A DNA stretch of 64,000 bases, taken from NCBI GenBank assembly GCA_050015395.1, contig JBEKBM010000003.1, positions 32,001 through 96,000 of the forward strand, given 5' to 3'. Source of the DNA: Candidatus Bathyarchaeia archaeon (lineage in GTDB: Archaea > Thermoproteota > Bathyarchaeia > Bathyarchaeales > Bathycorpusculaceae). Both the position numbers and the translations under genes were made by a program. Under the pieces are notes generated by a model. The model worked only from the letters and a program-made list of their open reading frames with translations. It was not told the origin of the DNA and made no database searches. Positions 1-6,292 of this stretch are shown here, piece after piece (the first letter of the stretch is position 1; each line of letters begins with the position of its first letter).

Positions 1-611
1 CCCTGCTCAAGCGAAGCGAATGTGAAGAATGCACCGAACATTGGTGAGAGAAGCCTGGAAACCTTGCCTTGTTCACCCATGCAGAAACAGACAAGTTTAG
101 CCTTGCTTGACATGGAAGAAACAAAATTCAGCACCGCCAGATTGTCTTCGATTTTCTTTGCAGCTGTCACTATTTTGCAGACGATGGCTCCGCCGGCAAT
201 TTCTTTTTCCAGAACCGTTTCCATTTCACAAACACTTAATGCGCCGTCGAATTTGTGGTAGGAAACGATTGGTTTAGCGCTCAATAGCTTGAGTTTTTCG
301 ATTGTTTCTTTATGTTTTGGGCTTGACAGGTTAACGTCAACATATTCGAAGCCGTTCTTGGCAGCGTTTAGTAATGTTTGTTGCCGCTCGGTTTCTGTTC
401 CAGCATAAAAGCCTTTTTCAATCAAGAGCTTGTTTGTTGCGATTAGCGGAACTTTGGTGCTTTTAACAAGTTCTGATAGGTTTCTGGACGCTTCAAAGCA
501 GTCTAGCCTAACTTCTATGAGGTTTGCTTGGGCTTTTTCTGCCCTCTCGATGAGACTTAACGCTTCAAGATTATTTTTTGGGAGAATCGAGACGCAGATT
601 CTCGCTGTCAC
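1..611 (-). CDS. aroD: Type I 3-dehydroquinate dehydratase (runs off the window edge)
   Basis: Translated by hand from GTG 611, overlapping the aroB' stop (GTGA): MTARICVSILPKNNLEA...ANLIEVRLD...IVSYHKFD...FCMGEQGKVSRLLSPMFGAFFTFAS; type I DHQase motifs; operon context. Confidence 0.9.
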   Translation of the reverse strand, partial: MTARICVSILPKNNLEALSLIERAEKAQANLIEVRLDCFEASRNLSELVKSTKVPLIATNKLLIEKGFYAGTETERQQTLLNAAKNGFEYVDVNLSSPKHKETIEKLKLLSAKPIVSYHKFDGALSVCEMETVLEKEIAGGAIVCKIVTAAKKIEDNLAVLNFVSSMSSKAKLVCFCMGEQGKVSRLLSPMFGAFFTFASLEQ

Positions 612-1648
612 TTTTCTATCACCGTTTCTTCAGGCACGGATACGCCGAAGTGTCGGCCTCCTTTCGCGGCTATGTGCACTATGACTTCATCGTTTGGTTT
701 TAGTTCTGTTACTGGTTTTGAAGCTTTCGGTGTCACCACTCGTATTGTTTCGGCGTTTTGAAGTATAATCTTGATTTTTGTGTCGCCGACTTGGGCTTCG
801 ATTAGGAGTAGAGGTCGAAACTCAATTTTTGACCGTCCCACATTTGTTATTCGAGCTTTTCCTTCCCTATTAATGATTAAAACTTCATCGCCCGCTTTCA
901 ACTCGGACAGATACCGAGTACCCTGCAGAGAAGTTAACGTGTAGTTTGACGCTGCCCCGGCGTTTACCCGGAAAGGCCTAGAATTTACGTAGGGGTTTTC
1001 ATTTACTTCAGCCTCTACAAGAAAGAAGCCTGCGGATTGGCATCCGACCAGCATTCCTTCGCCCGGAACCATTAAGTCAACAGTGTCCACGCAGACTCTG
1101 GCTCCACTGCTAATCGGTTTAGTTGATACGATTTTAGCTACAGTTAAAGTTATTTTGGGCATTTGCTCTTTAACGATTTTGGTGGCTTTTGAAAGCTCGT
1201 TGGGGTTTGAGGTTTTTAGCAAAACACCGTCGGTTCCTAGTTCTAGGGCTTCAAGAACCAGTTTCGCGTCTTCTGCGGTGGTGACTTCGGCGATTAGTTT
1301 GCTTTTGCCTCTTGCCTTCGCAATCAAATTTTCAAGCGGAATTACCCGCCAATCAAGACAGTTAATGATAATGTAATCAACCCCGAGTTCTGCCGCTTCG
1401 ACGGCTTTATTTTCGTCTTCTTTTCCCTTTATGCTGATTTTGATGGCGGTTTTTTTACCCTCGTTTTTGTGTTGGGCTATTTTTTTCTCGTTTAGTTCAG
1501 TGAGGAAGGTTATGTTTAATTTGCCAGAGCGGTTACCCGCCTGGGTATCTTCAATGATTACGTCAGCGTTTTCATGGGCGAGGCTGAGTAAAGTTTCTTT
1601 TTCTTGCGGTGAAGCAGCTTGGTCTATTTCTACCCATAGTTCCTTCAA
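608..1648 (-). CDS. aroB': 3-dehydroquinate synthase II (archaeal AroB')
   Basis: RVCVDT, GEGMLVG, SRPFRVNAG, YLSELKAG, LQNAETIR, GRHFG motifs. Confidence 0.95.
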   Translation of the reverse strand: MKELWVEIDQAASPQEKETLLSLAHENADVIIEDTQAGNRSGKLNITFLTELNEKKIAQHKNEGKKTAIKISIKGKEDENKAVEAAELGVDYIIINCLDWRVIPLENLIAKARGKSKLIAEVTTAEDAKLVLEALELGTDGVLLKTSNPNELSKATKIVKEQMPKITLTVAKIVSTKPISSGARVCVDTVDLMVPGEGMLVGCQSAGFFLVEAEVNENPYVNSRPFRVNAGAASNYTLTSLQGTRYLSELKAGDEVLIINREGKARITNVGRSKIEFRPLLLIEAQVGDTKIKIILQNAETIRVVTPKASKPVTELKPNDEVIVHIAAKGGRHFGVSVPEETVIEK

Positions 1649-2436
1649 TGGTGCTCACCGAGAATTTTAAGCGCTTGCTCTACGCTAACGCCGTCATGAA
1701 CGATTGCTGATAGCGCTTTAACTATTAAAGTTGGGTTCTCGTTTTGGAACACGTTTCGTCCAATGGAGAGTCCTGCAGCGCCAGCTTTTATTGAGTCATG
1801 TGTGGTTTGGAGGATTTCTTGGGATGTTTTGCATTTTGGTCCTCCAGCAATTACCACTGGAACTGGGCAGCTTTCGACGACTGTTTTGAAGGTGTCTATG
1901 TTGCCTGTGAAGTTTGCTTTAATTATGTCTGCGCCTAGTTCAGCGCCAATTCTTGCAGCGTGGGCTACCACGTCAGGCGCATGTTCGTTTTGTATTTTTG
2001 GTCCACGAGCGTACATCATTGCAAGCAGCGGCATACCGTATATGTCGCATTCGTCGGATACTTTGCCTAGGTTACTTAGCATTTTGTCCTCGTCTTGTGC
2101 ACCAACGTTCACGTGTACGGACACTGCATCTGCGCCTAAGCGTATGGCTTCTTGAACAGTGCACACTTGGACTTTACCGTTTATGTTCGGGCTAAGGTTT
2201 GACATGCCTGATAACTGCACTATTAAACCTGCGTTTCCAGCGTCAACGTATTTGGCTATGCCTTTGTGGACTAGTACGGCGTCGACTCCACCTTTGAGGA
2301 GTTGATTGATTATTTGCTGCATGTCGATTATTCCTTGGATTGGGCCGATTGTTACGCCGTGATCCATGGGTACGATTACTGTGCGGTTGTCTTGCCGCAT
2401 GATTCTTTTTAATCGTCGTGTTTTTCCTTGGTTCAT
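1645..2436 (-). CDS. aroA': 2-amino-3,7-dideoxy-D-threo-hept-6-ulosonate synthase (class I aldolase family)
   Basis: IVPMDHG, GADAVSVHVNVG, AELGADIIK, GLSIGRNVFQ; adjacent to aroB'. Confidence 0.93.
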   Translation of the reverse strand: MNQGKTRRLKRIMRQDNRTVIVPMDHGVTIGPIQGIIDMQQIINQLLKGGVDAVLVHKGIAKYVDAGNAGLIVQLSGMSNLSPNINGKVQVCTVQEAIRLGADAVSVHVNVGAQDEDKMLSNLGKVSDECDIYGMPLLAMMYARGPKIQNEHAPDVVAHAARIGAELGADIIKANFTGNIDTFKTVVESCPVPVVIAGGPKCKTSQEILQTTHDSIKAGAAGLSIGRNVFQNENPTLIVKALSAIVHDGVSVEQALKILGEHH

Positions 2437-2452: not shown

Positions 2453-3700
2453 TTATTTGGAAGTCCTTAATGAGTTTTTAATTAGTTTCAAGGCTTTTTC
2501 ACGTTCATTCCAATCTACAAAGAGCAGAATGCTTGATGTTATGGTTAGTATGCCTGAAATGTTTATCCCGTTTAATCTGAGGTCTTCGCTGATTTTTCCT
2601 ATTATGCCGTGGGTCTCTTCTAAGCCGACACCGCTTGTTTTTATGAAGACTAGGTCTTTTTTGACCGCCATTGCTATGGTTTCTTTATTGTTCTTTGTGA
2701 TATCATGAATATCATTAAAGAGCACGTCCAAGTTTTTTTCTTGAGAAGCGTAAAGTATAATTGAGTTTGTGTTCATTGACATGCCGAGAAGCAGGGAGTG
2801 CTGTTTGGTTTTTTCCACCATTTCTTGGATGATTTGGGGGTTTGCGGAGATGCCGTTTCCGATTACTGTTATTTCAGCGACTGGAAAGGGATGTGCTATT
2901 TCCGCGTCCAGTTCACTTGCTAATGCGCCTGTGATTACTGTGCCTTCTTTAGTTAAGTTGCCGTGTGCGTGGTTGATTACTCGGACGTTGATGTTTTTTG
3001 GTTTGTACTTTAAGGCTTTGCTGTGAATAAATTTGGCGCCTGAATCAGCTAAGCCTACTAGGGTGTTAACGTCGATTTCTCTTAGGCGTTCTGGGTTGGA
3101 GACAGTCTTGGGATCACCTGACATTATGCCATCCGCGTCGGTGACTAAGACGATTTCGTCAGCGTTTAATGCTTCAGCTAGGACAAACGCGGTTGTGTCG
3201 CTGCCGCCTCTTCCGAGAGTGGTGATTTTGCCGTCTTTAGTTTTGCCAAGGAACCCAGCGACTACTGGTATTATACCCTTTTCCATAAGGGGCAGTATGC
3301 ATTCACGAATATTTTTTTCGCAATCTTTCAGGATTGGATTGGCGTTTTGGAATGCTGAGTCAGTTATTATTGGCCAGTTGTTGTCTATTGGGTCAAAGTA
3401 GCAGGATTCTGCACCGTTAGTTTTTAGCGCAGCAGCGAATATTCTTATGCTGGTTCGCTCACCCATCGAGAGGATATCATCCAAGTCTTTTTTCTCTAAT
3501 TTTCCATTGGAAGCGTTTTTCGCTGTCGTCATAAGGACATCGGTTGTTTTGCCCATAGCGGAAACTACAACGGCGACCTGTGTGCCTTTTTTGGCTTCGT
3601 TCACGACGGCAACAACCGCTTTTAAGAGCCTCTCGTGATCCGCTAGGCTAGAACCACCAAATTTAACAACAATTCTTTCGTTAGAGGTATTTTTTTCCAT
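2453..3700 (-). CDS. lysC: Aspartate kinase (feeds aspartate semialdehyde to AroA')
   Basis: VVKFGGSS, VVVSAMGKTTD, TTLGRGGSDTTA, TDADG motifs; C-terminal ACT-like region. Confidence 0.92.
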   Translation of the reverse strand: MEKNTSNERIVVKFGGSSLADHERLLKAVVAVVNEAKKGTQVAVVVSAMGKTTDVLMTTAKNASNGKLEKKDLDDILSMGERTSIRIFAAALKTNGAESCYFDPIDNNWPIITDSAFQNANPILKDCEKNIRECILPLMEKGIIPVVAGFLGKTKDGKITTLGRGGSDTTAFVLAEALNADEIVLVTDADGIMSGDPKTVSNPERLREIDVNTLVGLADSGAKFIHSKALKYKPKNINVRVINHAHGNLTKEGTVITGALASELDAEIAHPFPVAEITVIGNGISANPQIIQEMVEKTKQHSLLLGMSMNTNSIILYASQEKNLDVLFNDIHDITKNNKETIAMAVKKDLVFIKTSGVGLEETHGIIGKISEDLRLNGINISGILTITSSILLFVDWNEREKALKLIKNSLRTSK

Positions 3701-3718
3701 CTTTTACACCCATGCTTT

Positions 3719-3756
3719 GCCCAGAACTTTGCTTAAAAAATTTCTTAGTTCTGGGC
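3719..3756 (-). promoter_or_regulatory. Perfect 10-bp hairpin between leader peptide stop and aspartate kinase RBS
   Basis: GCCCAGAACT (3719-3728) / AGTTCTGGGC (3747-3756); 18-nt loop containing a U6 run in the mRNA. Confidence 0.7.
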
Positions 3757-3840
3757 TTAAGGAAAATAATGATAAAAGTAGTAGTCGAAGCTAAGGAGTT
3801 GTGATGCACTTGTTTCTATCTTGCTTTTGCAATTAGACAT
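3757..3840 (-). CDS. Putative Phe/Tyr-rich leader peptide MSNCKSKIETSASQLLSFDYYFYHYFP (27 aa)
   Basis: ATG 3840 to TAA 3757; 7 of the last 10 codons are Tyr or Phe; lies between a BRE-TATA element and the aromatic biosynthesis operon. Confidence 0.75.
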   Translation of the reverse strand: MSNCKSKIETSASQLLSFDYYFYHYFP

Positions 3841-3878
3841 TGTAGCTTCGAACCCTTGCTCAATCAGTCATCATCCAG

Positions 3879-3896
3879 AAAATATAAGCGTTTCGG
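3879..3896 (-). promoter_or_regulatory. BRE-TATA promoter of the leader/aro operon
   Basis: Minus strand CCGAAACGCTTATATTTT about 40 nt upstream of the leader ATG. Confidence 0.55.
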
Positions 3897-4619
3897 AAAC
3901 AGCAGTAGATCCGCAAGTGCTTTAGCAAAAAGAGCCTAAAGTTTTCATTGGTTTTGCTTAAAGTAACTTTGCTATTTGGGTCTTCTTCTATGTCATGGTT
4001 TTCAATAGGGTAAAATATACGTGTGTAGGCTACTACCTACCGGGGGGTCAAATGCATATACGTTTTGTAGATACAATTTGACGATACAGTTTCAAAGAAC
4101 AGGCGGGAGAGCATATGCCTAAAGCGTTTAAGGCATTCAAGTGCGAGGCATTGCAAAGTTAGTGCTCTTAGCCATTGGAGGAACCTGCAATGTTAGTGAC
4201 AGGCGCTCAGGTGAATACTCCACAACATCGTTTAGCAGTTTTCAAGCTTTACTAAAGCTCACCTGCGGAACTACTGAACAGGATGACAGTTTAACTGATA
4301 AGTGCCTAACTATGACATGCCAGTTTCTAATTAAATAGCATACAAGCCTAAGGGGGGTCTACTTTTAGCCTAGGTGTTTGAGTAGCAAAAAGACTACCCT
4401 ATTTGGTCAGTCGACTTGTAAAACAAGCCTTTGTATGCTGTTATGCTTTCTTTTGCTTTTCTTCAGCTAAGCATCCACAATAAAAAATGTAGTTTCAAGA
4501 AACAAAAAAATAACAAAATCGCTCCGCTAAGAGCAAATTACGAGCCAGCAGTTCATTGCGACGGGGTATAGTCTTTATCAATTTGACCGTGCTATAAAGA
4601 ACCTAAAGAAGGTATTCGA

Positions 4620-5456
4620 TTGAAAGTGCAAAGGCAAAATGATTGGCAGGAAATCCTCATCCAATGCAAAAACAACGTGCAAACCAGCATTCAACCATGC
4701 TTATCAACCGTCAGGGAACCTCAACCTAACTTGGGCACGGGCGCTGGCGGAGACGCTATGAAGCCGGTGGATTTGGCGGCTGAAAAAGCAATAGTTGACA
4801 CCCTAAAGCAGTATAGTGTTTCTTTCACTTTGATTAGTGAAGAGTCAGGGGTAAAAAAATTCGGCGCGGCACCCCAAGAATGCTTTGTTACAGTTGACCC
4901 GATAGATGGGACCACGAACTTGATGCATGGTTTGCCCTTCTATGCTTGCTCTATTGCGGTTTCGGGAAAGCCCATGCTTGCCGATGTTTACGCGAGTATG
5001 GTTGCTGACCTTTTCCACGATGTAACTTACACTGCACTTGAAGGGAAGGGGGCTTATCGGGATGGCGAAAAAATACAGACGTCAAAGACTGCTTCTTTGG
5101 ATGAGGCAGTTGTAGGCTTAGACTTAAACACTTACAAAGTCAAGGAGTTCGTGCCTAAATTAACCGCTTTGATTGAGAAAACAAAGCACATCAGGCACTT
5201 TGGCGCTAACGCACTCGAACTTTGTTACGTTGCCAATGGCTTGACAGACGCGTTTGTAGATGTTCGCGGGAAGCTTCGCACGACTGATGTGGCAGCTGGC
5301 TTTCTGGTTGTGAAAGAGGCTGGCGGAATAGTTTCTACACCTGAAAATCAAGTCTTAAACGTTGCGTTGGATCCTAAGCAAACCTTAAGTTTCATAGCTT
5401 CAGGTAACATGGAAATTCATAGAAAAATCATAAGCTTGGTTAAATCCGCATGTTAA
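4620..5456 (+). CDS. suhB: Inositol monophosphatase / FBPase family protein
   Basis: ISEESG, VDPIDGTTN, ALELCYVA, DVAAG motifs. Confidence 0.88.
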   Translation: MKVQRQNDWQEILIQCKNNVQTSIQPCLSTVREPQPNLGTGAGGDAMKPVDLAAEKAIVDTLKQYSVSFTLISEESGVKKFGAAPQECFVTVDPIDGTTNLMHGLPFYACSIAVSGKPMLADVYASMVADLFHDVTYTALEGKGAYRDGEKIQTSKTASLDEAVVGLDLNTYKVKEFVPKLTALIEKTKHIRHFGANALELCYVANGLTDAFVDVRGKLRTTDVAAGFLVVKEAGGIVSTPENQVLNVALDPKQTLSFIASGNMEIHRKIISLVKSAC

Positions 5457-6292
5457 ATTTGCTTTGGCCTCACCCTGCAGCACTCATAAAAAATGGAAAA
5501 ACTAAAACTCTTCTTATCGCTGACCCGCACCTCGGCTGGGAAATGGGGCTTCAAGAAAAAGGCATCCATATCCCAAGCCAAACGCCTAAAATTCTCAACA
5601 AACTAACGGCAATAATCACCAAGTACAAGCCAGAGCAACTGGTTATCCTTGGCGACGTAAAGTACACGGTTGTTTCCAGTGAACTGGGCGAGTGGCATGA
5701 TATCCCAGATTTTTTTGCAAAACTACAAAGCTACGTTGGCGACATAGCTATTGTACGTGGTAACCATGACGCTAACCTTGAACCGCTGCTACCAGAAAAC
5801 GTCAAGATTTTGCCTGCAACAGGAGAGGTAATTGGTGATGTAGGCGTTTTTCATGGTCACAAGTGGCCCTCGCCAGCCTTGCTGCAATGTAAAACGTTGG
5901 TTATGGGACATTTGCATCCAGTTGTGGTTTTTCGTGACCCTGCAGGCTTTAAAATTACAAGGCAAGTGTGGATGAAAGCAAACTGTGACACGGAAGCTTT
6001 AGCGAAGATTCTGTTGCAAAAACACAACGTAAAAATCGAAGGCACCGTTGCTGAAACACTCAAGAAGCACTATAATATCAGACTGAAGGCGAAGGAAATT
6101 TTCATAATGCCAAGCTTCAACGATTTCCTAGGCGGCAGACCAGTAAACGAAACAAGACCCAGAAAAGAAATTGGTAATGAAGCGTTGATTGGGCCAGTTT
6201 TGCGTTCGGAAGCCGTCGATGTTGATAATTCTGAGCTTTATCTTTTGGACGGCACTTATCTTGGGACTTTAAACCAGCTCAGGAGCCTATAA
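5450..6292 (+). CDS. Calcineurin-like metallophosphoesterase
   Basis: ADPHLG, ILGDVK, RGNHD, FHGH, MGHLHP motifs. Confidence 0.88.
   Translation: MLNLLWPHPAALIKNGKTKTLLIADPHLGWEMGLQEKGIHIPSQTPKILNKLTAIITKYKPEQLVILGDVKYTVVSSELGEWHDIPDFFAKLQSYVGDIAIVRGNHDANLEPLLPENVKILPATGEVIGDVGVFHGHKWPSPALLQCKTLVMGHLHPVVVFRDPAGFKITRQVWMKANCDTEALAKILLQKHNVKIEGTVAETLKKHYNIRLKAKEIFIMPSFNDFLGGRPVNETRPRKEIGNEALIGPVLRSEAVDVDNSELYLLDGTYLGTLNQLRSL

Follow-up and report, generated by a model that had tools for sequence, protein, structure and literature searches.

A candidate Phe/Tyr leader-peptide attenuator upstream of the aromatic amino acid operon in Bathyarchaeia

A small upstream ORF rich in tyrosine and phenylalanine codons, followed immediately by an RNA hairpin, precedes the aromatic amino acid operon across an order of the archaeal class Bathyarchaeia, where 99 of 106 orthologous loci have the aromatic-rich leader, and recurs in nine further families belonging to other orders of the class. 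Its architecture resembles a ribosome-sensed control switch of a kind so far known only from bacteria, and we interpret it as a candidate archaeal leader-peptide attenuator with a one-hairpin design, the output step of which is inferred.

Anatomy of the locus

The element was found in a 64,000-nt stretch (the window) of Candidatus Bathyarchaeia archaeon (Bathyarchaeales; Bathycorpusculaceae), assembly GCA_050015395.1, contig JBEKBM010000003.1, positions 32,001 to 96,000; coordinates below are those of the window and all features are on the minus strand. The elements described in the initial annotation are present in the sequence, and its observation is confirmed. A BRE/TATA promoter element, CGAAACGC-TTATATTTT, lies at 3895-3879 (feature 3879..3896), of which GAAACGCTTATATTTT is nearly invariant in 24 loci of the genus, and conservation with relatives stops just upstream of it. 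The transcription start is inferred to be near 3857 from the usual archaeal TATA-to-start distance, giving a 5' UTR of ~17 nt. The leader ORF of 27 codons (3840..3757, including a TAA stop at 3759-3757) encodes MSNCKSKIETSASQLLSFDYYFYHYFP, ending FDYYFYHYFP, and its ATG is invariant in the 24 genus loci. The aromatic cluster occupies codons 18-26 (F D Y Y F Y H Y F; 3763..3789), the proposed stalling or sensing site; seven of the last 10 codons are Tyr or Phe (4 Tyr, 3 Phe), with no aromatic residue before codon 18.

A perfect 10-bp hairpin (3719..3756) begins at the first base after the stop, with arms GCCCAGAACU (3756-3747) and AGUUCUGGGC (3728-3719) and an 18-nt loop holding a U6 tract at 3740-3735, a candidate archaeal termination signal. 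The stem is followed by AAAGCAU. The Shine-Dalgarno (SD) sequence GGGUG at 3711-3707 lies 7 nt after the hairpin and 6 nt before the ATG (3700) of the aspartate kinase (AK) gene, and matches the genome's own 16S 3' end, GGAUCACCUCCU.

Pfam annotation identified the downstream genes as previously proposed: aspartate kinase (AA_kinase + ACT, 2453..3700), a DeoC/LacD-family aldolase (1645..2436; the name AroA', an ADH synthase type, is inferred from family and context), 3-dehydroquinate synthase II (AroB', PF01959, 608..1648) and type I 3-dehydroquinase (AroD, 1..611), which runs off the window. The operon continues beyond the window edge (Pfam, on the sequence labelled L031) with shikimate dehydrogenase (aroE), a GHMP-type kinase, EPSP synthase (aroA), chorismate synthase (aroC), an aminotransferase and prephenate dehydrogenase (tyrA). 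The ten genes are all biosynthetic, and the operon makes chorismate and Tyr. Orthologues of the kinase occur in 128/251 genomes of the order, and a second AK, 38% identical, lies elsewhere in the genome.

Conservation of the leader ORF

In this genome alone the aromatic cluster is not unique, as 5 of 6537 intergenic ATG-sORFs have at least seven F/Y in a 10-codon window, although this is the only one of the five with a same-strand gene within 300 nt. The case that it is more than chance rests on conservation. An ORF of the same design was present in 27/27 orthologous loci of a first sample and in 0/3 paralogue loci. Across the order, 99/106 loci have at least six Phe/Tyr/Trp in the last 12 leader codons, compared with 1/106 for the reverse complement, 3/1060 for shuffled sequences and 5/1111 for genes of this genome, including this one. 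The ORF was also found in 17/17 named Bathyarchaeia loci, while four out-group or paralogue loci scored 0-1. In other orders, 19 of 60 loci, from nine families, have it together with the hairpin. In contrast, two families (f26 and f35, 29 loci) carry the AK orthologue with a different 5' element and only 2-5 aromatic codons. Since related genomes are not independent, these counts and the associated p-values overstate the support.

Aromatic content is conserved while the order of residues varies between lineages. Single-nucleotide codon differences are 34% synonymous in the cluster against 25% just upstream, and aromatic-to-aromatic swaps are the largest replacement class (615/1718). Tyrosine codons are the commonest (TAT+TAC 404, TTT+TTC 348, TGG 30 over 107 loci). 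A scan of the trp, his, leu and ilv operons, which had been suggested beforehand as a check, found no further cognate leaders in this genome.

Conserved RNA structure

The hairpin starts 0 nt after the stop in 80 loci and 0-5 nt after it in 103 of 105, with medians of 13 bp, -17.8 kcal/mol and z = -4.4. An SD was found in the same position across loci, and the hairpin ends -2 to +8 nt before it in 104/105. In an alignment of 75 sequences, 9 of 13 pairs change on both sides, giving a covariation score of 0.236 against 0.111 for shuffles (0/500 as high) and 0.05-0.11 for slid registers, although the compensatory changes trace to a few lineage splits.

An RNAalifold consensus of 24 genus sequences contained only the hairpin and a second helix, stem 1. 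The 5' arm of stem 1 (3843..3851, UUCGAAGCUA region) is at the 5' end of the predicted transcript, 2-3 nt before the leader AUG, and its 3' arm (3785..3793, UAGCUUCGA) covers the Ser-Phe-Asp codons at the front of the cluster. Stem 1 is paired in 98.8% of cells, with nothing compensatory seen at this depth. Analogous helices between the 5' region and the cluster front, with other sequences, occur in 60 of 107 loci.

We folded 105 loci by partition function with ribosome masks, assuming a footprint of +/-15 nt. The only structure that changes with modelled ribosome position is the hairpin: expected base pairs were 12.3 in the free RNA, 12.5 and 12.9 with a ribosome stalled at the first and middle aromatic codons, 5.0 at the last and 2.7 at the stop. 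No alternative antiterminator structure was found, with the proviso that equilibrium folding can miss kinetic alternatives.

U-tracts inside or after the hairpin are about 3-4 times enriched. Runs of U>=4 lie between stop and SD in 77/105 loci against 26.7 expected, and U>=5 in 40 against 9.3. The run starts a median of +21 nt from the stop and lies in the loop or a bulge in 51 loci, in the 3' arm in 14, after the hairpin in 12 and in the 5' arm in none. In the remaining 28/105 loci without a U4 tract, SD:3'-arm pairing is 0.565 against 0.190 in the 77 with one, and SD pairing rises by 0.21 against 0.08 when the ribosome moves from the cluster to the stop. SD:3'-arm pairing goes from 0.02 to 0.24 when the ribosome is at the stop; it is strong in loci of families f5, f12 and f7 lacking U4 (0.72-0.82) and about 0.01 in the present locus, while over all loci the complementarity is no better than composition gives (0.290 vs 0.285 permuted, p=0.51).

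A proposed ribosome-mediated attenuator as the best explanation

We propose that the element is a ribosome-mediated (leader-peptide) attenuator of the aromatic amino acid operon. In this view, the speed at which a ribosome crosses the Tyr and Phe codons reports the supply of charged tRNA-Tyr and tRNA-Phe. When aromatic amino acids are scarce, the ribosome would stall early or midway in the cluster and the hairpin would fold, tucking away the U-tract and the pyrimidine-rich 3' arm, so that RNA polymerase reads on, a ribosome loads at the adjacent SD and the operon is ON. When supply is good, the ribosome would run to the last codons and the stop, and its footprint would melt the hairpin, exposing the U-tract (U6 in this genome) in single-stranded nascent RNA to archaeal termination, either intrinsic at oligo-U or through aCPSF1/FttA. 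In lineages without a U-tract, the freed 3' arm would instead pair with the SD; either way the operon would be OFF, which is the physiologically sensible direction. Archaeal RNAP terminates at oligo-T, hairpins can modulate this, the KH domains of aCPSF1 bind U-tracts and FttA acts on exposed nascent RNA (PMC13675443).

The analysis itself establishes the anatomy, its conservation against controls, the hairpin covariation, the dependence of the hairpin on modelled ribosome position, the U-tract enrichment and the complementary distribution of U-tract and anti-SD arm. In contrast, translation of the leader, a response of downstream expression to Tyr/Phe supply, the direction of regulation, and the termination step and its factor are inferences in this uncultured archaeon, as the only RNA contigs found cover part of the AK coding region of a relative and not the leader. 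The ON/OFF direction rests on physiology plus the anti-SD subset of loci. Moreover, where the U-tract is in the loop it is transcribed before the 3' arm, so the hairpin cannot influence intrinsic termination at that moment; the model therefore needs slow or factor-dependent termination or direct ribosome-RNAP contact, none of which is shown. We put the probability of a Phe/Tyr-sensing leader-peptide control element at roughly 0.7-0.8, but the read-out in this genome, U-tract termination gated by the hairpin, remains tentative and less likely than not.

The interpretation in the initial annotation is partly supported. It proposed a translated leader rich in end-product codons as a cis-regulatory sensor, which is supported by the conserved ORF, in-frame cluster, stop position and SD spacing, and its attribution of the DNA to Bathyarchaeia is right. 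Its proposed read-out, a helix between the leader and the SD, is not supported, whereas its side remark on termination at the U6 tract or by FttA/aCPSF1 fits the data better, since U-tracts are enriched.

It is also possible, though again less likely than not, that Bathyarchaeia evolved their own form of attenuation independently of bacteria, with a single hairpin between the leader stop and the next SD as the ON structure, and that lineages have swapped between U-tract and anti-SD read-outs while keeping the same Phe/Tyr codon sensor. This would be the first ribosome-mediated attenuator in Archaea and a natural handle on transcription-translation coupling and conditional termination in that domain. 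Control of amino acid operons by a translated leader is a textbook bacterial mechanism, and full-text literature searches found no described case in Archaea; a 2026 review of termination across domains never uses the word stem 'attenuat' (PMC13675443). The comparative signal is unusually clean, the same design appearing in well over a hundred loci spread over at least 16 families of Bathyarchaeia with controls near zero. If the element works as proposed, ribosome-RNA polymerase coupling would be used for regulation in Archaea, there would be a compact, testable model of conditional termination at a U-tract or of SD masking, and a search for leader peptides, which gene callers ignore, would be worthwhile in other archaeal lineages. 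The element is about 180 nt long and can be moved into a reporter in a tractable archaeon.

Alternative explanations

The strongest alternative, though unlikely, is the translational attenuation originally suggested, in which the Tyr/Phe codons pair with the SD and start codon of the kinase gene in the resting RNA and a stalled ribosome frees the ribosome binding site. In this genome the SD core does pair with the cluster at p=0.69 in the free-RNA ensemble, within the genus accessibility of the -13..+3 window rises from 0.44 (free) to 0.57 with a ribosome at the middle aromatic codon, and the weak YAUU:GGUG core is kept in 18-22 of 24 genus members. Translation-level attenuation by a cognate-codon sORF has a bacterial precedent in the mycobacterial poly-Cys sORFs (bioRxiv 10.1101/834739). 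However, the specific CUACUUUUA(U)CAUU : GGUG-UAAAAG-(A)UGG helix is paired in only 65.7% of cells across the 24 genus members, against 98.8% and 100% for the two truly conserved helices, and five of its 13 pairs are unpaired in 10-16 of the 24 sequences, because the SD-to-AUG spacer varies freely. It is absent from the RNAalifold consensus. Over 105 loci SD/AUG accessibility shows no consistent opening on stalling, being 0.41 free, 0.41-0.46 stalled (0.41 at the first codon, 0.45 at the middle codon) and 0.47 with the ribosome at the stop; the stalled-minus-stop difference is negative in 69/105, and in f7 (genus g16, 21 loci) there is no change at all (0.38 vs 0.37).

Less likely still, the nascent peptide itself may be the sensor, as in TnaC, an established amino-acid-sensing arrest peptide (PMC8429421), with the aromatic-rich chain binding free Tyr/Phe in the exit tunnel and arresting the ribosome at or near the stop when these are abundant, holding the hairpin open and shutting the operon. 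This gives the same sensible direction from the same structural evidence, and many leaders end in Pro-stop or other slow-terminating contexts. Arrest peptides, however, need particular residues at fixed distances from the peptidyl transferase centre, and here only aromatic composition is conserved; the order, spacing and C-terminal residue differ widely between lineages (for example SFDYYFYHYFP, FYSFGYFFYN, FSGYWYFFNY, FYRYRYFFYR, FFDFFYYYFYFE, RFFTYFSGYYTTF), a pattern that fits codon counting better than a specific tunnel interaction.

Similarly improbable is the opposite logic, in which the hairpin plus U-tract is a terminator that forms when the ribosome lags and is suppressed by a close-following ribosome, so that the operon is expressed only when Tyr/Phe-tRNA is plentiful, through translation-dependent read-through or a ribosome hand-over across the hairpin base to the adjacent SD. 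The geometry allows it: the modelled hairpin is intact with a stalled ribosome and melted with one at the stop, the stop codon and SD are brought together at the base of the closed hairpin, a U-run directly follows the hairpin in 12-20 of 105 loci as in a bacterial intrinsic terminator, and archaeal RNAP can respond to such terminators, with hairpins able to enhance termination (PMC13675443). This logic is, however, the reverse of what a biosynthetic operon needs, the U-run is more often in the loop than after the stem (51 against 12), and in loci without a U-tract the modelled SD masking goes the other way, with more masking when the ribosome is at the stop.

Finally, an incidental ORF or free-standing micropeptide beside an inverted repeat bound by a protein regulator of DNA or RNA is very unlikely, for although both helices are conserved in sequence within the genus without compensatory change (0 of 16 pairs), as a protein site would be, and known archaeal control of aromatic operons is by the proteins TrpY and Tar (PMC6737238), across lineages the stem sequences differ completely while position, stability and pairing are kept with compensatory changes, the ORF is kept open with an invariant start, a variable N-terminal part, an in-frame aromatic cluster and a stop fixed against the hairpin, none of which a protein operator would require, and no maturase or partner gene for a peptide product lies nearby.

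Comparison with known systems

In the Escherichia coli pheL-pheA, trpL and hisL attenuators, a short ORF at the 5' end of a biosynthetic operon mRNA likewise carries a run of codons for the pathway's end product, and ribosome position on these codons decides the fate of a downstream RNA structure (PMC11802643; 10.1101/834739). The bathyarchaeal element differs in domain of life and in having one hairpin abutting the stop instead of four regions with a mutually exclusive antiterminator; with the cluster masked the hairpin stays intact and no such 2:3 pairing was found. Because no antiterminator was found, the design differs from every tested attenuator. Nor is there a stem directly followed by a U-run at this locus, the U-tract being mostly inside the loop across loci; the termination machinery would be archaeal and the hairpin would be the ON rather than the OFF structure. 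No match to Rfam leader families, which include Phe, Trp, His, Leu and Thr leaders, was obtained at E<=1 for positions 3400-4800 or for 11 other loci.

The Corynebacterium glutamicum aroR leader upstream of the aroF operon is also a mixed Phe/Tyr leader (Phe-Tyr-Phe) controlling a common-pathway aromatic operon by ribosome stalling (PMC11802643, citing Neshat et al. 2014). It is bacterial, has only three regulatory codons and is reported to respond to Phe but not Tyr, whereas here there are 6-10 aromatic codons with Tyr the commonest.

In mycobacterial poly-cysteine leaderless sORF attenuators and ermC-type translational attenuation, cognate-codon or drug-induced stalling changes the availability of the downstream SD without a terminator (10.1101/834739), which resembles the subset here whose freed 3' arm is modelled to pair with the SD (f5, and f7 loci without a U-tract). 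In those systems stalling opens a closed SD, while here the modelled SD is about equally open in the resting and stalled states and becomes more paired only while the ribosome sits at the stop, an effect that is lineage-restricted and absent in this genome's locus.

Archaeal U-tract terminators read by RNAP and aCPSF1/FttA share with the element a U4-U6 tract in nascent RNA shortly after a stop codon, and their U-tract recognition and cleavage-linked termination are described in PMC13675443. Known examples are at gene ends, and a conditional one gated by a leader ORF and a hairpin is not described in that review; termination at the U6 tract here is inferred.

The archaeal regulators TrpY (Methanothermobacter) and Tar/TK0271 (Thermococcus) have the same targets, the aro, tyr-phe and trp operons, but are DNA-binding proteins acting at promoters rather than RNA- or ribosome-based (PMC6737238). 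Their discoverers note that a large part of the TACK archaea, the Crenarchaeota, mostly lacks both and may use a third mechanism, and the present element is a candidate for such a mechanism in a related lineage.

Operon context

On the minus strand of the window, a BRE/TATA, CGAAACGC-TTATATTTT, lies at 3895-3879, followed by a 27-codon ORF from 3840 to 3757 that encodes MSNCKSKIETSASQLLSFDYYFYHYFP with its stop codon TAA at 3759-3757. A perfect 10-bp hairpin has its 5' arm beginning at the first base after the stop (3756-3747), pairing with 3728-3719 and enclosing an 18-nt loop that holds U6 at 3740-3735. GGGUG lies at 3711-3707, complementary to the 3' end of the genome's own 16S rRNA, GGAUCACCUCCU, and an ATG lies at 3700. 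This ATG opens an aspartate kinase with an ACT domain (2453-3700, minus strand), which is followed by a DeoC/LacD aldolase (AroA'-type), dehydroquinate synthase II (AroB') and type I dehydroquinase as identified by Pfam. Beyond the window edge in the same contig the operon continues without gaps through shikimate dehydrogenase, a GHMP-family kinase (archaeal shikimate kinase type), EPSP synthase, chorismate synthase, a class I/II aminotransferase and prephenate dehydrogenase. The leader thus precedes the whole common aromatic pathway plus the tyrosine branch, which fits a Tyr-rich leader. The observation made in the initial annotation is confirmed in every detail, and the hairpin is even closer to the stop than it had stated.

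The genome has two aspartate kinases. The one heading the aromatic operon is consistent with the aspartate-semialdehyde-dependent route to dehydroquinate through AroA'/AroB', whereas a 38% identical paralogue lies next to a DapB-like gene (contig C1, 82664-83824). Prephenate dehydratase (pheA) is the last gene of a branched-chain (ilvB...leuA) operon (contig C3, 12141-19618, outside the window) and not of the aromatic operon, and the Phe branch is therefore transcribed separately from the genes inferred to be under leader control.

Upstream of the leader promoter, about 660 nt of non-coding DNA (3900-4565) separates it from a divergent inositol-monophosphatase-family gene (4620-5456). This region has no ORF above 65 codons, no Rfam or tRNA match, and no similarity even in relatives whose kinase is 93-97% identical, only 4566-4639 being shared. 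A scan for sigma-70 promoters and bacterial terminators, which does not apply to archaea, found only a terminator-like site at 4536-4519 on the minus strand. Two peat metatranscriptome runs with small shares gave one contig each against 3300-4300, 90-95% alike and covering only 3300-3610 and 3300-3453. Neither covers the leader or bears on its transcription start, 3' ends or expression. Programmed frameshifting or read-through into the kinase gene is rejected, because the leader is in another frame and an in-frame TAA lies two codons before the kinase ATG.

Conservation of the leader ORF

In this one genome the aromatic cluster is not more than chance would give. The genome is 42.6% G+C, and among 6537 intergenic ATG-started ORFs of 10-70 codons, five have at least 7 Phe/Tyr in a 10-codon window, although this is the only one of the five with a same-strand gene within 300 nt. 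The decisive evidence is comparative. The kinase has orthologues in 24 of 24 sampled genomes of the same genus (72-97% identity) and in three genomes of other families (52-60%). A small ORF ending in a Phe/Tyr cluster is present upstream of all 27 orthologues, and there is none upstream of the three paralogue loci.

Within the order, 128 of 251 genomes have the orthologue, and from these we examined 80 loci outside the genus together with the 27 of the first search. As a fixed statistic we used the best count of F/Y/W in the last 12 codons of any ORF of at least 10 codons whose stop lies 20-130 nt upstream of the kinase start, leaving out one locus (L069) with only 160 nt of upstream sequence. 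By this measure 99 of 106 loci score 6 or more, with a distribution of two loci at 4, five at 5, 14 at 6, 31 at 7, 45 at 8 and nine at 9; the seven low scorers still carry recognisably related tails. The same statistic gives 1 of 106 on the reverse complement, 3 of 1060 on shuffles and 5 of 1111 for other genes of this genome with at least 150 nt of upstream spacer, one of the five being this locus.

In a partial scan of named public genomes, all 17 orthologous loci (at least 49% identity) belong to MAGs labelled Candidatus Bathyarchaeia or Bathyarchaeota, among them Ca. Bathycorpusculum and MAGs labelled Bathy6, and the dedicated kinase orthologue was found only in Bathyarchaeia. All 17 have the leader while four out-group or paralogue loci score 0-1, although some of these records are probably the same genomes as those of our other samples. 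In a class-wide sample, 106 of 301 genomes have the orthologue, and we examined 60 of the 65 matches classed as the same class. Of these 60 loci from other orders, 19 have the leader with a hairpin directly after its stop; by family (our labels) these are f14 3/3, f19 1/1, f27 4/4, f28 1/1, f30 4/4, f32 1/1, f34 one (a second f34 locus is truncated), f37 3/3 and f16 1/1. One f15 locus is weak, and ten loci of f17 and f31, in which the kinase is only 39-43% identical, lack it. Related genomes are not independent, and these counts describe breadth rather than probability.

The remaining 29 loci, of families f26 (loci L230-L245) and f35 (loci L240-L279), carry a different conserved short ORF or RNA element just after a TATA box, 60-170 nt upstream of the kinase orthologue. 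Examples are MGDHLFGDGVY.., ..FGGHIYGDYYW.. and MGGHLYWH.., with repeated GG[HD]x[F/Y] units, GGUGA repeats and small hairpins that appear to covary (CCAUC/GAUGG against GUCAC/GUGAC). It has only 2-5 aromatic codons and may be a derived leader or a different regulator site.

Within the genus, the promoter element, the leader ATG, the cluster and both helices described below are almost invariant, while the N-terminal two thirds of the leader and the SD-to-ATG spacer vary freely. Between lineages the cluster keeps its aromatic content but not its sequence: SFDYYFYHYFP, FFSFDYYFYYFN, FYSFEYSFYYYFN, FSGYWYFFNY, FYSFGYFFYN, FYRYRYFFYR, RFFTYFSGYYTTF, PFFGSFGYFGYRG, FFDFFYYYFYFE and PYYYYYYYCFF. Over 107 loci the last 12 codons hold 404 Tyr, 348 Phe and 30 Trp codons, with both synonymous codons of each used. 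Single-base codon differences are 34% synonymous in the cluster (371 of 1104) against 25% (323 of 1279) in the ten codons before it, and aromatic-to-aromatic swaps are the largest replacement class at 615 of 1718; this test is anchored at the stop and blurred by length differences in the cluster, and gives only weak support. Composition without sequence is what a codon-counting sensor predicts, and argues against a peptide with a specific fold or a specific tunnel contact.

We found no convincing Trp, His, Leu or other cognate cluster upstream of a gene among the 6537 intergenic ORFs of this genome, nor at the trpE, hisG and four HMGL-like gene heads, which were inspected individually, indicating that this is not a general attenuation regulon in this genome. 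At trpE (contig C41, about 6000-6130, outside the window) the reading frame has no ATG, GTG or TTG near its conserved N-terminus, and a TATA-proximal ATG opens an overlapping 19-codon ORF in another frame, which may reflect an assembly frameshift or an unusual start; there is no Trp-rich leader. The V-L-I-L small ORF at the ilvB head is not a conserved branched-chain cluster. A conserved element of ~45 nt (GAGGGAUCGUCACCUC...GGGUAC) lies there, about 150-100 nt upstream of ilvB at C3:12141 (positions 790-845 of L119, the extracted locus of this genome; outside the window). It is present upstream of the ilvB-ilvN-...-leuA-pheA operon in 22 of 22 genus loci, is recognisable in loci of families f4, f5, f10, f11 and f12 (relatives in L121-L149), and overlaps the small ORF (MRDRHLNSWDRRV..). 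It has no Rfam match and looks like an RNA element or operator.

Structure of the leader RNA

Hairpin and SD statistics cover 105 loci, two (L076 and L118) having been left out because the start-codon assignment failed. The strongest hairpin between the leader stop and the SD begins 0 nt after the stop in 80 loci and within 5 nt in 103, with a median of 13 bp and -17.8 kcal/mol. It is far more stable than shuffles (median z = -4.4, 97% below -2) and ends -2 to +8 nt before the SD in 104 loci, most often at 4 nt. The stop-to-SD distance is correspondingly constant at about 44 nt. Rfam returned no match for the leader region of this genome or for 11 other loci.

The stems have unrelated sequences in different lineages. 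We therefore aligned 75 distinct sequences from the lineages that share the GCCCAG/CUGGGC base, leaving out families f5, f10, f11 and f12 and genera g20, g24, g25, g32, g47, g48, g75 and g84, whose stems have unrelated sequences, as well as duplicates. RNAalifold returned no consensus structure on this alignment, and a 13-bp helix was specified by hand from the per-locus folds. Because that helix was derived from the sequences, the percentage of paired cells is biased upward, and the relevant measures are both-side changes, covariation and slid controls. Nine pairs change on both sides, one of them being C-G in 36, A-U in 31 and G-C in 4 sequences, and the covariation score is 0.236 against 0.111 for shuffles (0 of 500 as high) and 0.05-0.11 for slid registers.

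A second helix, the only other one in the genus consensus, joins the very 5' end of the predicted transcript to the codons at the front of the cluster (UUCGAAGCUA at 3851-3843 with UAGCUUCGA at 3793-3785). Helices of the same kind but other sequence occur in 60 of 107 loci, and in genera g20, g24, g25, g32 and g48 the equivalent helix (CCAAUAGCCAC with GUGGCUAUUGG) encloses the leader start codon. It may restrict leader translation to one round, or act as a pause or as a structure synchronising ribosome and polymerase, but our interpretation does not build on it.

Modelled response to ribosome position

The ribosome was modelled as a 30-nt unpaired mask and partition functions were computed for the 105 loci. 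The SD/AUG window is unpaired at 0.41 in free RNA, at 0.41, 0.45 and 0.46 with the ribosome at the first, middle and last aromatic codon, and at 0.47 with the ribosome at the stop; stalled-first minus stop is negative in 69 of 105. In this model stalling does not open a closed SD. What does switch is the hairpin, with expected pairs of 12.3 in free RNA, 12.5 and 12.9 with a ribosome stalled at the first or middle aromatic codon, 5.0 at the last and 2.7 at the stop. A long-range antiterminator between the freed 5' arm of the second helix and the hairpin arms, judged by eye at 5-6 bp at best, was rejected because the hairpin stays intact in masked folding.

A run of at least 4 U lies between stop and SD in 77 of 105 loci against 26.7 expected from shuffles of the same segments, and a run of at least 5 U in 40 against 9.3. 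The run starts a median of 21 nt after the first base of the stop (IQR 19-26) and lies in the loop or a bulge in 51 loci, in the 3' arm in 14, just after the stem in 12 and never in the 5' arm. The 5' arm is purine-rich and the 3' arm pyrimidine-rich (0.63 against 0.37 purine; 83 loci that way, 19 equal, 3 opposite). With the ribosome at the stop, the freed 3' arm pairs with the SD core at 0.24 on average against 0.02 when the hairpin is closed, although over all loci this is no more than the arm's composition gives (0.290 against 0.285 after permuting the arm, p=0.51). The two features are nevertheless complementary. The 28 loci without a U4 tract have 3'-arm:SD pairing of 0.565 against 0.190 in the 77 with one, and their SD becomes more paired by 0.21, against 0.08, when the ribosome moves from the cluster to the stop. 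The f7 loci without U4 show 0.72 and +0.36, and f5 shows 0.76 and +0.25. This rests on a few lineages, and the nominal p of 4e-6 overstates it. Both proposed read-outs point the same way: ribosome at the stop would mean OFF, and a stalled ribosome with a closed hairpin would mean ON, which is the direction a biosynthetic operon needs.

Proposed mechanism and alternatives

The interpretation in the initial annotation is partly supported: comparative evidence strongly supports a ribosome-mediated Phe/Tyr leader, but not the specific mechanism of SD sequestration. We consider the most likely mechanism to be a one-hairpin, ribosome-position switch read out by U-tract termination, or in some lineages by SD masking. 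For U-tract loci such as this one, we propose that the closed hairpin hides the U-tract and the U/C-rich arm, and that a ribosome reaching the stop keeps them single-stranded in the nascent RNA, where archaeal termination can act. Archaeal RNA polymerase terminates at oligo-T with hairpins able to modulate it, the KH domains of aCPSF1 recognise U-tracts, and FttA cleaves exposed nascent RNA from vulnerable elongation complexes, according to a 2026 review (PMC13675443). If the spacing of the bacterial expressome applies, a tightly following ribosome would be decoding the last two or three leader codons with the polymerase at the end of the U-tract (about +25), and direct ribosome-polymerase contact at the decision point is therefore also possible. 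The arrangement of the leader, its conservation and the U-tract enrichment come from the sequences themselves and the toggling of the hairpin from folding models, whereas translation of the leader, its response to amino acid supply and the whole output step are inferred. A weakness is that a loop U-tract is transcribed before the 3' arm exists, so the hairpin can only matter if termination there is slow or factor-dependent.

Of the four alternatives, the best surviving, though unlikely, is SD sequestration as first proposed, in which the Tyr/Phe codons pair with the SD and start codon of the kinase gene. The helix exists in the ensemble of this genome (SD core paired with the cluster at p=0.69), but on the genus alignment it is paired in only 65.7% of cells, against 98.8% and 100% for the two real helices, because the spacer it needs is not conserved. 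Ribosome-mask accessibility, the partners of the SD core, the genus alignment and the permutation control did not support it as a general mechanism. A TnaC-like peptide sensor of free Tyr/Phe and a reversed logic in which the hairpin is the terminator are both less probable still. A protein operator with an incidental ORF is the least likely.

Comparison with known regulatory systems

For archaea, the papers found describe protein regulators of aromatic operons, TrpY and Tar, with the remark that Crenarchaeota mostly lack both and may use a third mechanism (PMC6737238). Literature searches returned no paper describing leader-peptide attenuation in archaea or in Bathyarchaeia, although an earlier mention in subscription journals or supplementary material cannot be excluded and the supplements of archaeal Ribo-seq studies might list relevant uORFs (PMC11456600; PMC10117724; PMC7261190). 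As far as these searches reach, the present candidate is the first in Archaea of a kind of control already described in bacteria. It is not a member of the classical family, having no stem-plus-U-run terminator in this locus, no antiterminator alternative in equilibrium folding, which can miss kinetic alternatives, and no match to any Rfam leader model. In the reading proposed here, it works like the bacterial leader-peptide attenuators (pheL, trpL) and especially like Corynebacterium aroR, a Phe-Tyr-Phe leader before the aroF operon (PMC11802643). In the subset of loci with an anti-SD arm, it works like translation-level attenuators such as the mycobacterial poly-Cys sORFs (10.1101/834739).
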